The notes beneath the pieces were generated by a model that saw only the letters and a program-made list of their open reading frames with translations, had not been told where the DNA came from and ran no database searches. Shown here piece by piece: positions 9,457 through 15,066 of a DNA stretch of 64,000 bases. Source of the DNA: an uncultured delta proteobacterium (GTDB taxonomy: Bacteria > Myxococcota_A > Polyangia > Polyangiales > Polyangiaceae); assembly GCA_963782055.1 (NCBI GenBank), contig CAWAIF010000003.1, forward strand, positions 1,824,001 to 1,888,000, in the 5' to 3' direction. Each line of letters opens with the position of its first letter. Within the stretch, counting starts at the first letter, position 1. A program made the translations under genes and the position numbers.

Positions 9457-9530
9457 CAGCGCATCCGTGCCCCGCGTGAACGCTTGCAGGAGGGAGGGCA
9501 ACGGATGCCCTTTGTAGAGGAGAATGCTCG

Positions 9531-9695
9531 ATGACCGATCCCAACGCCGAGGTGAAGGAGGCTCCTGCGGAGCAGGAGACGCCGAAGAAGCGCCCGTACG
9601 TGGCGCCCCGGCTCGTGGAGCTGGGGAAGGTGCGGGATCTGACGGCGGCGGGCGGGGCTTCTAGCACCGATGGTGGTTTCACTCGACGCCCGTAG
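9531..9695 (+). CDS. Lasso peptide precursor (A), 54 aa: MTDPNAEVKEAPAEQETPKKRPYVAPRLVELGKVRDLTA|AGGASSTDGGFTRRP
   Basis: Translated by hand (below the track cutoff). RBS AGAGGAG at 9516-9522. Leader motifs YxxPxL and LGxVxxLT with Thr at -2. Core starts with Ala and has Asp at position 8. Lies directly before the cyclase. Confidence 0.93.
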   Translation: MTDPNAEVKEAPAEQETPKKRPYVAPRLVELGKVRDLTAAGGASSTDGGFTRRP

Positions 9696-11112
9696 GCAAC
9701 TGTTGATCTCCGGTCCCTTCGGGCTGCCTCGACTCTACTACTCCGTTGGTGACCACCGTGTCGCGCCTGAGTTGGATCGTCTGAGGCGCATCACCGACGC
9801 AGAACCGGACGATGCAGGTCTCGCGGGCTGGTGCACCGGAATCCGTGACGCTGATGCCGGCACCACACTCTTCACCCGCCTCCGCCGGCTTCAACCGTTC
9901 GAGACCATTCCAGCATCCTCTGATGATGCGGGCCGTTCCGCGCAGATGCCCGTCCTGCCGTCCCGAGCGTGGGACCGTCGATCTCCTGCAGACCTGGCGA
10001 CTGAACTCCGCGCGCGTCTGTTCAGCGCCGTCGCGAGGATTACGAAGGGAGCCCACAGGGTGGCGGTGATGCTTGGGGGCCTAGACTCAAGCGCGGTACT
10101 CAGTATCTTGACGAGGCTCTTCCCACCGACTTCCCTCTTCGCCATCACTATCCTGTTTGAAGAGGGGGAGCGCGATGCTCCATATGCTGAGGCCTTGTGT
10201 CGCCACTTCGGCGTAAGATGGTATCCGTTACCCTTGTCGAGAGCGGTGCCGGTAGAGGCGTTTGTGGTGGCTGATGCTCACCCCTGCCTCTCGCCCCACG
10301 CCGGTAGCGAGCTTGGAGCTTTTCGGCTGGCCGCAGAGCTGGGCGCCGACGTTGTCGTCACGGCAACGCTTGGCGACGCGGCGTTCGGGGGAAATCTTGG
10401 CCAAATTGGCCGCCTCTACGCCCGCCGTCATCCCATCGCGGCCGCTCGCCTCGCGCTTCGCGCTCAGCTTCCGTGGCATCCGAGTCCGCTCCGACGTGTG
10501 CGCAGTTTGCTCGTTGCACCGAACATCCGCGACCGTATGCCCGAGGTTGTACGCCGGTGGCGCTCGCGCCGGCAATGGAGAGACAGGGCTCCTTGGGTTA
10601 CGCCCCACTTTTCGAGACTACTGGAGCGACATGAGCTTTCCGCCGCCAAGCCATACTTTATTAGTACTACGCCGGCGGCTTGGCTGCGAGAGCTGGTTGC
10701 AAACGTCGATGTGTTGACCGTCACGGCCGGGCTCTCGGCCTTCGCCCAAACCTCTGGACTTCGTTGGCGGGACGCGCTCTTTGATGTGCCTCTGCTCGCG
10801 TTTCTGGCTGCTATTCCCATCGAGCGGCTACTTGATTGCAACAAGTTTCGAGGCTTGCTTCGTCGAGCGATGGCGGGCTGGATGCCGGACCCTGTTCGCT
10901 TGCGGGCTGGCAAGGCATCCATGAACGGCCGCAAGCGACACTTCCGGGCTGACGACTTGAGGGCGATGGGGGAGTTTGCCCGAGCGAGACAACTCGCGAA
11001 GCGGGGGCTTGTCGACTCGGCGGCGCTGCGTGCTGCGTTCGAACACGCCGACGACATCTCGCCCATTTGGCGTTTTCTGGCTGCCGAAGCTTGGTTGCAA
11101 CGGGTGGCTTGA
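9670..11112 (+). CDS. Lasso peptide macrolactam cyclase (C protein; asparagine synthetase-like)
   Basis: ATP-PPase motif LGGLDSS; N-terminal remnant GPFGLPRLYY; C-terminal LFDVPLLAFLAAIP..RGLLRRAMAGWMPDPVRLRAGK; cluster context. Exact start uncertain (ATG 9670 or TTG 9703). Confidence 0.88.
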   Translation: MVVSLDARRQLLISGPFGLPRLYYSVGDHRVAPELDRLRRITDAEPDDAGLAGWCTGIRDADAGTTLFTRLRRLQPFETIPASSDDAGRSAQMPVLPSRAWDRRSPADLATELRARLFSAVARITKGAHRVAVMLGGLDSSAVLSILTRLFPPTSLFAITILFEEGERDAPYAEALCRHFGVRWYPLPLSRAVPVEAFVVADAHPCLSPHAGSELGAFRLAAELGADVVVTATLGDAAFGGNLGQIGRLYARRHPIAAARLALRAQLPWHPSPLRRVRSLLVAPNIRDRMPEVVRRWRSRRQWRDRAPWVTPHFSRLLERHELSAAKPYFISTTPAAWLRELVANVDVLTVTAGLSAFAQTSGLRWRDALFDVPLLAFLAAIPIERLLDCNKFRGLLRRAMAGWMPDPVRLRAGKASMNGRKRHFRADDLRAMGEFARARQLAKRGLVDSAALRAAFEHADDISPIWRFLAAEAWLQRVA

Positions 11113-11837
11113 TGACTGTAGCAGCTGGCATTCCCTGCCTGGTGAACAGCGTGGCCGGCGGATATTCCGCGGAGTGGCCGGGCTTGGGTAGTCTCCGCAT
11201 TCAGGGCTCTTCAACTGTTCACCATACCTATGTTGATGATGCAGTTGCCGCCGAGAAGTGGCGCCGCGGTCCCGCGATGGCCGTGGAAAGATACTTGCGT
11301 CGCACCGGCGTCGGATTTCACGCGTCGGCTGTCAGTTTGCCCAGTGGCCACGCCATTGTCTTCGCCGGGGCAAGCGGTGCCGGAAAGTCCACCGCCGCCG
11401 CGGTCTTGTGTCTTCGAATGGGAGCAAGCTTGCTGGCAGATGACGTCTGCATCGGCAAGATCGACCGCGGTCAACTCTGGATAGAGCCCTCGGAGTCGCA
11501 GCACTGGCTGGATGGCCCGGCGCGCGAGCGTCTCGCGTACCCGCGTGGCCAGGGTCCTAAGCGGCCAGTGGCCGCCAGCTCGCTGGCCCACGCCCCTATC
11601 CCGGCCGCGAAGCTTGTGGCGCTGCGTGATGATGGGCCCGTGCAGCCCGTGCGCCTTCGTGGCCTGGAGGCGCTGACCGCGATAGCAGCGGCGTCGATGG
11701 CTCCCCACGTGGATGCTGAGGCGCAGAGTCGAGCCGTCGAGGATCTGGATCGGTTCGTCGTGATCGGGCGGCTCGTGGAGGTGGTGGCCTGCTGTCGTCT
11801 CCCCGATGATCTCCTGCTGCGGAAACTGGTGGCGTGA
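11112..11837 (+). CDS. HPr kinase-like lasso peptide kinase
   Basis: FHASAV, Walker A GASGAGKST and LLADD motifs; TGATG coupling to the cyclase stop at 11112. Confidence 0.85.
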   Translation: MTVAAGIPCLVNSVAGGYSAEWPGLGSLRIQGSSTVHHTYVDDAVAAEKWRRGPAMAVERYLRRTGVGFHASAVSLPSGHAIVFAGASGAGKSTAAAVLCLRMGASLLADDVCIGKIDRGQLWIEPSESQHWLDGPARERLAYPRGQGPKRPVAASSLAHAPIPAAKLVALRDDGPVQPVRLRGLEALTAIAAASMAPHVDAEAQSRAVEDLDRFVVIGRLVEVVACCRLPDDLLLRKLVA

Positions 11838-12124
11838 TGGAACGGGCTCTGACTTCCGACCGCTTCCAGGTGGCTGAGCACGTGCACGCCCGCGAGTTCG
11901 ACGGGGAGATGGTCGTGCTCGATCTGCAGTCAGGCACCTACTTCGGCCTCGACGAAGTGGGAGCCTTCTGCTGGCAGGCGCTGGGCGCCGGTCGTGCGGT
12001 CTCCGAGGTTGCGGGAGAGATCGCGGCCGTCTACGACGTCTCCCGAGACGAGGCTCTTCGGGATCTTCTAGCCTTGGCCGACGAATTATTGCAGCGGCAC
12101 CTCGTCCAACGGAGGGCACCATGA
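11837..12124 (+). CDS. PqqD family RiPP recognition element (lasso B1)
   Basis: REFDGEMVVLDLQSGTYFGLDEVGAFCWQAL...IAAVYDVSRDEALRDLLALADELLQRHLV; coupled start (ATG 11837 or GTG 11834). Confidence 0.92.
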   Translation: MERALTSDRFQVAEHVHAREFDGEMVVLDLQSGTYFGLDEVGAFCWQALGAGRAVSEVAGEIAAVYDVSRDEALRDLLALADELLQRHLVQRRAP

Positions 12125-12507
12125 GCGGCCTGCACGTCGCCTCACGATTGGCGCTGCGGCTTCTTCGCCCACGCCAGGCTTTTCGGGTGGTGGCCGCCCT
12201 GGGGCGCCTCGTGCCCTCGCTCGACCGCACGGAGGCCGAGGCCTACGCGGTGAACCTGTCCGGGAGGGGCAGCTGCCTCTCCCGATCCGTCGCGGTGGCC
12301 GCTCGTCTTCCCGGCGCGAAGGTCATGATCGGCGTGGCGCCCGTCGGGTACGGGGCGGTGCGCGCCGCGCTCTACGGGGCAAGGCGCGGGGAGGTGCTCA
12401 AGGCGCATGCCTGGGTCGAGGTGGATGGGCGCCCCCTCGCAGGACAGCGGCCCCTGGGCAAGGTTCTGGCGACGCTCGAGGTAGCTCGACCAGTCACCGA
12501 TTCATGA
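12121..12507 (+). CDS. Lasso peptide leader peptidase (B2, transglutaminase-like)
   Basis: Catalytic Cys in SCLSRSVA, then IGV and AHAWVEVDG motifs; ATGA overlap with B1. Confidence 0.88.
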   Translation: MSGLHVASRLALRLLRPRQAFRVVAALGRLVPSLDRTEAEAYAVNLSGRGSCLSRSVAVAARLPGAKVMIGVAPVGYGAVRAALYGARRGEVLKAHAWVEVDGRPLAGQRPLGKVLATLEVARPVTDS

Positions 12508-12537
12508 TATCCTGGACGCGTCGGGAAGGAGCTTTCC

Positions 12538-13443
12538 ATGAGGAACTTGTCACGCATCGCAGCGATGGCTGGAGGGATCGTGGCCTGCAACGTCATCGCC
12601 TGGACGTCGATGGTGGGTTGCAGCGGAGACGACAACGCAATCCCCGATGGGGGCGATGCGGCCCCTGACAACACCCAGATAGATGTCTTCGTGCCCGACG
12701 TGCAGGGCCAGGACGTCGTGGGCGACGAGGACGCTGGCACCAACCCCGACGCTCCCTATGACGCAGCGTCTCTCCTAGCCTTCCCCGCCGAGGAAGCGCT
12801 GGCGAGCTGTGGTCGTCTCCGGACGTGCTGCTACGGCGCCGACGCTGGGGTCGCTCTCACCAAATGCATTGGACATGTTAGTCCACTTGGGATCAATGGC
12901 ACCCTCGTGGAATTGAGTCTCCCAGGCGTGCTTGATGGCGGGCATCTTCACCTGGATGAGACGACGGCAAACTCCTGTCTCGCAGCACTCAGTACCTTCT
13001 CGTGCCCGGTGATGCCGGAGTCCGAATACCGGAACGTCACACAGAATTGCTACGGGGCCGTGTCCGGTACCCTTCCCATCGGGGCTCAGGGGTGCAAGAC
13101 GAGCGTTGAGTGCGTGCCGGGAGCGTACTGCGCTGCTGCGACTGCGCCCGACGGCGGTCCCACGAAGGAGTGTTATGTTGTTGGCGATGCCGGCTCGCCC
13201 TGTACCGCATCCAACATCCAGTGCATGTACCGCGGGTATCTAGGCCAGAACCAGCTTCGTTGTGCCATTGACGGTGGGTCCACGGGGACATGTGGTCCCC
13301 AGCTCCAGAACGGTGCGAAGTGCAACTACTCCTTCGACTGTCTGTCGCAAACCTGCGACGAGACGGGCCATTGCGGTACTGCCTTCACACTGACGGATCC
13401 GGGGACTTGCGACTACCTCTTCTACAGCGACGCCGGGCTCTAG
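12538..13443 (+). CDS. Cys-rich secreted lipoprotein of unknown function inside the lasso cluster
   Basis: RBS AAGGAG; signal peptide ending VGC; DAG-rich linker; about 20 Cys. Confidence 0.75.
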   Translation: MRNLSRIAAMAGGIVACNVIAWTSMVGCSGDDNAIPDGGDAAPDNTQIDVFVPDVQGQDVVGDEDAGTNPDAPYDAASLLAFPAEEALASCGRLRTCCYGADAGVALTKCIGHVSPLGINGTLVELSLPGVLDGGHLHLDETTANSCLAALSTFSCPVMPESEYRNVTQNCYGAVSGTLPIGAQGCKTSVECVPGAYCAAATAPDGGPTKECYVVGDAGSPCTASNIQCMYRGYLGQNQLRCAIDGGSTGTCGPQLQNGAKCNYSFDCLSQTCDETGHCGTAFTLTDPGTCDYLFYSDAGL

Positions 13444-13461
13444 TCCGTCCCGTCGACGTCG

Positions 13462-15066
13462 ATGACGTCTCGCCTCACCGCACTGCGCCGAGCAGGTCCC
13501 TGGACCGCGCTCGGCGCGGCGCTTTTGTTCACCGAGCGCGTCGCCATCTTCGCCGCCGCCTCCGGTCTCGCCGCGCGGAGCGCCCGCGCCGCGCTCATCG
13601 CCGGGGCCGGCGCCTCCGCACTCCACCTGACCCGCTCCGCCTTCGGCTCCCTCGCCCGCACGCGGAGCCAGGCGGCGCTCTACGACGAGGCGCTCACCGC
13701 CGTGCTCGAGGGGGACGTGCTGGCGGTACAGGGCGAGAAGCTCCAGGCGACGCTCTTCTCGGCCATCGACGCCGCCGCGCGTGTCGGCGCCACCGCCGTT
13801 CCCTCGCTCATCGGTGACGGGCTCGCCGCCGCCGTCCTCGGCGTGTGGGTCGTCGCGGGCACGCCCACCGCGACCTGGGCCGTCGCGGGCGCCGCGCTCG
13901 CCGCGGGCCTCGTCCTCGCCCTGATCTCCCGTCGCGTCGCCGGCGCCGCCTCCGACCGGTTCTGGGCCGCGCACGAGCGCGTCGCGCGGCACCTCGTCGA
14001 CGGCGTGGACGGGCGCGTCGACCTCGCCGCGAGCGGTGAGGTCCCCGCCTTCCGCGAGGGCCTGCAGAGCGCCGTCTCGTCGCAGCGCTCCGTCGCGCGC
14101 CGCGCGGCCATGCTCGAGGCCTTCGCGGGACGTGCGCCCATGGCCGCCGCGGTCTTCGCCGCGCTGGGGGCCGTCCTCGCGCTTCATCCGTCGCTCGCCG
14201 GGACCGGCCTGGCGCACCTGATCGTGCTCGCCGGCGTCATGCCGCCCTTCGCGGGGCTCGCGATGTCCCTCGCGCAGGTGGCGCGCGCTCGCGGTCCGCT
14301 CCGCGCGCTGGACGCTCTCCTCCGCTCTCCGCGCATGGACGCAGGCGGTTCCTCGCAGCCTGCCGTGGCGGCCATCGATCTCCGGGGCGTGACCGTCCGC
14401 TACGGCGAGACGGTCGCCCTCGACGGGGTGACCATCCACCTGGAGCCGTCCGGCGTGCACGTACTCGTGGGTCCCAACGGGTGTGGAAAGACGACGCTCC
14501 TCGGCGTGCTCGCCCGGCTCGTTCGACCGTCCGACGGCGAGATCCTGGTCGGGGGCGACACGCTGGATGCGCTCGACCTCCGCGCCTGGCGTGCATCGCT
14601 CGGCTACCTCTCGCAGCGCCCGTACCTCCCGGTGCGCTGCTCGGTCCGCGTCGCGATGCGCTTCGTCGCCCCGCGCGCGGACGACGAGGCGCTGCGGGCT
14701 GCGCTGCGGCGGACGCGCGCGTGGGAGGTGCTCGCGAAGAAGTCGCCGGACGATCCGCTCTCCACCCCGGTCGACGGCCTGTCCGCCGGCGAGCGCCAGC
14801 GCGTCGCCCTCGCCCGCGTCCTGGTGCGCCAGCCTCGCGTGCTCCTGCTCGACGAGCCGGACGCCAACCTCGACGCCGAAGGCCGCGCGCTGCTCGTCCG
14901 GCTGCTCCGCGAGCTGGGGGAGTCGTGCTGCGTCGTCTGCGCGGCGCATGGCCGAGAGATCCGGGAAGCCGCCGATGTTCTGGTCCACCTCGAAGCAGGC
15001 CGGGTGGGCAGCGAGGAGCAGCCGCACCGTCCCCTCACCTCCGGGCGGCTCGCCTCGTCCGCGTGA
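13462..15066 (+). CDS. ABC exporter (fused TMD + NBD), probable lasso peptide exporter
   Basis: Several TM helices; Walker A GPNGCGKT, signature LSAGERQ, Walker B LLLDEP. Confidence 0.88.
   Translation: MTSRLTALRRAGPWTALGAALLFTERVAIFAAASGLAARSARAALIAGAGASALHLTRSAFGSLARTRSQAALYDEALTAVLEGDVLAVQGEKLQATLFSAIDAAARVGATAVPSLIGDGLAAAVLGVWVVAGTPTATWAVAGAALAAGLVLALISRRVAGAASDRFWAAHERVARHLVDGVDGRVDLAASGEVPAFREGLQSAVSSQRSVARRAAMLEAFAGRAPMAAAVFAALGAVLALHPSLAGTGLAHLIVLAGVMPPFAGLAMSLAQVARARGPLRALDALLRSPRMDAGGSSQPAVAAIDLRGVTVRYGETVALDGVTIHLEPSGVHVLVGPNGCGKTTLLGVLARLVRPSDGEILVGGDTLDALDLRAWRASLGYLSQRPYLPVRCSVRVAMRFVAPRADDEALRAALRRTRAWEVLAKKSPDDPLSTPVDGLSAGERQRVALARVLVRQPRVLLLDEPDANLDAEGRALLVRLLRELGESCCVVCAAHGREIREAADVLVHLEAGRVGSEEQPHRPLTSGRLASSA

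Follow-up and report, generated by a model that had tools for sequence, protein, structure and literature searches.

A myxobacterial lasso peptide kinase, its single precursor and a predicted phosphorylation site in the lasso ring

The cluster and its precursor

The window (the whole stretch of 64,000 nucleotides analysed here) holds a lasso peptide cluster in which a precursor gene (A) is followed by a cyclase (C), a kinase (K), an RRE protein (B1), a leader peptidase (B2), a Cys-rich predicted lipoprotein and an ABC exporter (D) (Table 1). The cyclase, the RRE and the cysteine peptidase are recognised through Pfam, and NCBIfam lasso models score below their cut-offs. The start of C is uncertain, either an ATG at 9670 that overlaps the precursor or a TTG at 9703. 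Its motif GG[LI]DSS is common to the window's subclade in the alignment, and its shortness was rejected as a sign of damage, 31 of the 78 family cyclases measured being equally short. GC content over most of positions 9500-13500 is 61-65%, against 72% in the genome, which is consistent with acquisition of the cluster from elsewhere. A promoter and terminator scan gave nothing exceeding chance.

Table 1. Positions of the cluster genes and their parts in the window
Feature	Position	Strand	Basis or remark
Lasso precursor A, 54 aa	9531..9695	+	leader model NF033521 above cut-off; leader HMM
Precursor leader, 39 aa	9531-9647	+	
Precursor core, 15 aa, predicted Ala1-Asp8 ring	9648-9692	+	
Core Ser5 codon, predicted phosphorylation site	9660..9662	+	prediction
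Lasso cyclase C (Asn_synthase), short form, most of N-terminal domain missing	9670..11112	+	
Precursor kinase K, HPr-kinase/PEPCK fold, 241 aa	11112..11837	+	start overlaps cyclase stop
RRE / B1 (PqqD family)	11834..12124	+	PF05402, E=2e-17
Leader peptidase B2, Cys motif GSCLSRS, His motif HAWVE	12121..12507	+	PF13471 at cut-off; alignment
Cys-rich predicted lipoprotein	12538..13443	+	conserved in cluster family
ABC exporter D	13462..15066	+	

The precursor scores above the cut-off of the NCBIfam lasso leader model (NF033521; 24.7 bits vs 19). It has the YxxPxL leader, the Thr at -2 and the acidic residue at positions 7-9 expected of a lasso precursor, and the spacing Tyr-17/Pro-14/Leu-12/Thr-2 leads to a core of 15 residues, AGGASSTDGGFTRRP. 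This core contains Asp8; its hydroxyls S5, S6, T7 and T12, its two Arg and its ending FTRRP are as first described in the initial annotation. Residue 3 is Gly; as the C-terminal residue is Pro and not Ser, neither of the known phosphorylation sites of this kinase class, the C-terminal Ser and Ser3, is present in the core. Could a Ser-ending precursor elsewhere in the genome be the true substrate, as the annotation had allowed? A leader HMM built from the kinase family, with the unpublished genome G396 possibly among its seeds, was run on the genome (97% complete), cut into 104,507 six-frame segments; the precursor scored 39.4 bits and the runner-up 11.6, and no second precursor, Ser-ending or other, was found by it. 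A looser pattern returned one Ser-ending candidate elsewhere in the genome, outside the best 20 of the leader HMM. B1, B2 and K are each single-copy in the genome. Within the precursor, GC3 is 0.53 in the core and 0.90 in the leader; this is not a general family trait, the core lying below the leader in 27 of the 74 precursors whose cores are compared below.

The kinase, its relatives and its possible substrates

K carries HASAV (residues 70-74), the Walker A sequence GASGAGKST (86-94) and DD (110-111) in an intact open frame, and its annotation as a lasso-cluster kinase stands. The His-Lys-Asp-Asp set with Walker A that characterises HPr-kinase-like RiPP precursor kinases is present, and the eight motif residues of BsfK are all matched (H70, G86, G89, G91, K92, S93, D110, D111). 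The AlphaFold model (pLDDT 92.6) has its best Foldseek matches in PEPCK and HPrK, with TM-scores of 0.34-0.52, and no lasso kinase is among the matches listed. HPr kinases also rank first in a PDB profile search, and the best family scores are those of weak HprK-related models.

Among 382 further genomes from the family of the host, 84 match a search profile made of K and nine homologues (E ≤ 1e-38, with a score gap below); the unpublished G396 is included in this count and contributes to nothing else here, except possibly to the leader HMM. The family set consists of 119 top-scoring kinase frames from 118 loci in genomes and metagenome contigs, which also hold relatives of the cyclase (106 loci), B1 (111), B2 (49), the lipoprotein (90) and the exporter (55). 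No precursor was seen at 39 of the 118 loci, many of them on short contigs but at least five on long ones, and two were duplicates; after removal of cores that have fewer than 11 residues or run off a contig, 74 distinct cores were left.

The Cys-rich protein, called a lipoprotein from an N-terminus judged by eye, has no Pfam or NCBIfam match; its atlas look-alikes are Cys-rich proteins of Myxococcota. Its best matches track the subclade of K and C, the first six all being members of the K subclade, and it is a candidate receptor or immunity protein.

Is the precursor the substrate at all? The fold is common to HPrK and PEPCK, the genome encodes HPr, and a few family cores have no suitable ring hydroxyl, so K might act on HPr, a tail Arg, the lipoprotein or a small molecule. 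K shares the P-loop fold and the His/DD motif with the HPr(Ser) kinase/phosphorylase model TIGR00679, but it reaches only 14.2 bits where the cut-off is 240, and is not a canonical HPrK; the genome has its own, scoring 325 bits, about 1 kb from HPr and about 0.96 Mb from K. Several cores of the K subclade (L226, L237, L218) have no Arg. Natural fusions of family kinases point the same way: in P0010 the kinase carries a C-terminal RRE (PF05402), and in L217:5186-7792 (+) cyclase and kinase form an open frame of 868 residues with a short linker. These fusions place K in one pathway with the lasso genes. The annotation's suggestion of another substrate, Arg included, gained no support and is quite improbable. 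A further cyclase-kinase fusion, in L240, is doubtful, as the part preceding the Met of the kinase appears to be out of frame, and only L217 was counted.

Is K still at work? Of 43 well-conserved columns it retains 31, where the median is 38, and this puts it in the bottom four of 111 rows. It has neither the conserved N-terminal Trp nor the R-x-G motif, and sits on a terminal branch of 1.17 in the kinase tree (median 0.56). GC3 is 0.66 in C and 0.70 in K, compared with 0.91-0.92 in two flanking genes, and within the genus a match at E ≤ 1e-38 occurs in only one of six other genomes. All this would suit a kinase, or an entire cluster, in decay, whose peptide, if made, would be unphosphorylated. 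Yet the seven invariant residues of K are all intact, every frame is open with genes overlapping at start and stop, the fold is predicted with confidence, L237 is equally diverged (30/43), and recent acquisition accounts for the low GC3 equally well; decay seems improbable, and an active K, phosphorylating the precursor of the window, is likely. The sole same-genus match, L222:4948-5169 (-), lies in a rearranged cluster with a core of 8 residues and no acidic residue, and that cluster is possibly broken.

How does K relate to the kinases already characterised? PadeK, ThcoK, SyanK and PsmK target the C-terminal Ser (PMC9266682). The rule drawn from them in the annotation does not extend to BsfK of Bradymonas sediminis (Duan et al. 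2023, PMC10368454), whose precursor ends in Asp. The residue that BsfK phosphorylates is Ser3 in the ring; it tolerates Thr at this position, leaves Thr2 untouched, is far more active with B1 and does not modify the core once the leader is missing. Nor does the rule cover LppK of Paenibacillus alginolyticus (Popov et al. 2026, PMC13381572), which modifies Ser3 in a linear RiPP. Since BsfK is published, a lasso kinase with a precursor that has no C-terminal Ser is in itself no surprise. K shares with BsfK the HPr-kinase-like character and the His-Gly-Lys-Ser-Asp-Asp set, and the two clusters share split B1 and B2, a cyclase, an ABC exporter, a YxxPxL leader, an Asp8 ring, a precursor without C-terminal Ser and a ring hydroxyl as target (predicted for K). 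The differences are as clear: BsfK is strict for residue 3, which is Gly in the window's core and not the Ser/Thr3 of the BsfK type; leader position -2 is Thr and not Ile as in bsf, or Val; bsf has a nucleotidyltransferase where the window's cluster has none, and has the Cys-rich predicted lipoprotein instead; and similarity between the kinases is limited to 54 residues around the P-loop (K has 241 aa, its counterpart an open frame of 363). LppK, compared by its published description, is also an HprK-like kinase with an RRE, a YxxP leader and phosphorylation close to the core N-terminus, but it modifies Ser3 only and yields a linear polyphosphorylated product, with a signal-peptidase-type protease and no cyclase. 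PadeK-type enzymes share the His-Lys-Asp-Asp motif and, as proposed for K, act on the precursor before maturation, whereas their C-terminal Ser is lacking in the window's core and in 71 of the 74 family cores.

The trees agree with this separation. In a 92-row tree built from family kinases that have a precursor, less some near-duplicates, and from chosen outgroups, the family makes up a single 71-row clade (99/94). Two other clades stand apart from it: the Bacillota kinases (Paenibacillus/Cohnella) whose precursors end in Ser (100/100) and the Bsf group (100/100). PadeK-type enzymes are represented by the stand-ins L117, L152, L158 and L186, not by PadeK itself, and BsfK by L250, whose core mass equals the published calculated mass of BsfA, 2015.8417. 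AU tests on 35 rows reject a grouping of K with PadeK-like rows (p=0.0004) and its placement inside the Bsf group with L250 (p=0.0008); all p-values given here overstate, since sequences that share ancestry do not count as independent. How the three groups branch from one another is too poorly resolved to name BsfK as the nearest characterised relative by descent. The phylogeny called for by the annotation hence sets K apart from the Ser-terminal stand-ins, and of its idea of a new regiospecificity the part that stands is that K is not PadeK-type and likely acts on a ring hydroxyl, a target for which BsfK is the precedent. K itself falls in a subclade of 7 rows (93/90; 90/70 in a reduced set), recovered independently in the cyclase tree (SH-aLRT 99).

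Which hydroxyl?

The comparison of cores from homologous clusters turns attention from the tail to the ring. Only three of the 74 cores end in Ser, and 39 end in Met. Ser or Thr occurs at ring positions 2-5 in 70 of 74 cores, while shuffled cores average 44.1 and none of 20,000 shuffles reaches 70. The richest position is 3 (34/74). The first ring Ser/Thr lies at position 2 (22 cores), 3 (29), 4 (10), 5 (9) or later (3), and a lone one is found at 2, 3, 4 and 5 in 6, 11, 5 and 5 cores and at 6, 7 and 8 once each. Four cores have none at positions 2-5, one of the 74 having none in the ring. Among kinase-free actinobacterial cores the figure for positions 2-5 is 10 of 20, and after dereplication 8 of 13 against 60 of 64 in the family (Fisher p=0.0055); this control, for which a strict pattern gave precursors at 22 of 60 loci, 20 of them without a kinase, is small, comes from another phylum and is slightly above its own shuffles (8 vs 4.9; 197/5,000). 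A kinase-free control within the phylum gave a plausible precursor at one of 20 loci, without a cyclase match. That phosphorylation, if K acts, falls in the ring is very likely. Met, Lys or Arg abound in many family tails. At L062:162-386 and L105:36-374, lasso-type leaders next to second-tier kinases precede long cores of Gly/Thr/Asn repeats that contain no acceptor. Among L305-L312 and L315, from other families of the phylum, kinase, RRE and B2 occur together, several without a cyclase-model match and two with Phe-starting cores lacking a ring Asp/Glu, which suggests cyclase-less cassettes.

Within the K subclade Ser5 is present in all seven cores, and each other column from 1 to 9 holds two to six different residues; the seven count as six lineages, since two share one kinase. 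Ser5 was spotted on the first tree, before L291 was added, and the subclade is defined from proteins, not from cores. The two members with an identical kinase, L033 and L218, show 99.7% identity across 9.4 kb, and seven of their eight mismatches lie within the core; five residues change, Ser3 and Thr12 among them, and Ser5 is kept, such that one ring has Ser3 and Ser5 and the other Ser5 alone. Over the 36 core bases (L033:4465-4500 and L218:1306-1341) six of the seven mismatches change an amino acid, which, as far as the two sequences go, is very strong local diversification. In L240, from another subclade with Ser5 in 3/3, Ser5 is the sole hydroxyl of the entire core. Other subclades fix Ser2 (5/5), Ser/Thr3 (4/4) or Ser5 (3/3). 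Among kinase pairs at least 55% identical with different cores, 25 of 28 have a ring Ser/Thr position in common, where the share over all pairs is 48%; part of this agreement comes from shared descent, and L276/L277 (kinases 77% identical), with no such position in common, are a clear exception.

Taken together, Ser5 is probably the site of K. What of the neighbouring hydroxyls? The first ring Ser/Thr varies over positions 2-5 and later across the family, two of the six subclades examined lack an invariant Ser/Thr column, position 7 is most often Thr (14/74), and the window's core offers three adjacent hydroxyls; K might then use a loose window after the leader and phosphorylate Ser6, Thr7 or several of them. 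But position 5 alone is invariant in the K subclade, where Ser/Thr occurs at position 6 in 2/7 and at position 7 in 4/7 cores, and BsfK ignored the adjacent Thr2, so such loose action appears unlikely. Thr12 in the tail has in its favour that Ser/Thr stands at position 12 in 22 of 74 cores, compared with 12.6% over all tails; it is found there in only 3/7 subclade cores, and becomes Gly between L033 and L218 although the kinase is identical, leaving Thr12 very improbable as the target. Ser5 could also be kept for the target or the fold of the peptide rather than for the kinase.

A single genome carries, in L203 (9398-9571, -; 15064-15264, +), two divergent kinase-lasso clusters arranged back to back, and the predicted sites differ between them, Ser3/4 in one and Ser2 in the other.

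Proposed pathway and meaning

By analogy with the characterised systems, B1 would bind the YxxPxL leader while the precursor is still full-length, and present the core to K, which with ATP-Mg would phosphorylate a ring hydroxyl, most likely Ser5 and possibly more than once. B2 would then cut off the leader, C would close the Ala1-Asp8 ring after leader removal and D would export the predicted phospho-lasso, with a calculated mass of 1497.64 Da with one phosphate (1417.67 Da unmodified). The complete reading, RRE-assisted phosphorylation of the precursor at Ser5 before cleavage and cyclisation, is given a probability of roughly 0.55. Action on the precursor, dependence on the RRE and the order of the steps are carried over from BsfK and PadeK to a locus whose genes, motifs, fold, single precursor and conservation pattern are observed. 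The main doubts about this reading come from the divergence of K, the low GC3 of the cluster and the chance that Ser5 is kept for peptide function; the reading is also weakened by the fact that both known N-terminal kinases use position 3, BsfK strictly.

K is probably, judged from sequence, the enzyme of a third site, the predicted Ser5, in an uncharacterised myxobacterial family. A search of the open-access literature gave no paper on the K family and none on a lasso peptide phosphorylated at Ser5, subscription papers falling outside its scope; ring Ser at other positions may be shown in the alignment figures or the FASTA files that supplement PMC10368454, also outside it. A wider picture can be sketched, tentative when all its parts are taken jointly: the family would be a series of kinases, guided by the RRE, that differ in how far along the lasso ring they act, with sites fixed by subclade (Ser2, Ser/Thr3, Ser/Thr4, Ser5) after repeated origins, the rest of the core diversifying fast, the lipoprotein a receptor or immunity partner, the whole a strain-specific signalling or kin-discrimination code, and the window its first Ser5 example.

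What would follow? A common myxobacterial lasso family is brought to notice. If the Ser5 reading is true, an enzyme for this site, together with sister clades predicted to act at positions 2, 3 and 4, would allow tests of how a kinase guided by an RRE measures its distance from the leader, and would offer tools for placing phosphate at chosen positions of the lasso ring.
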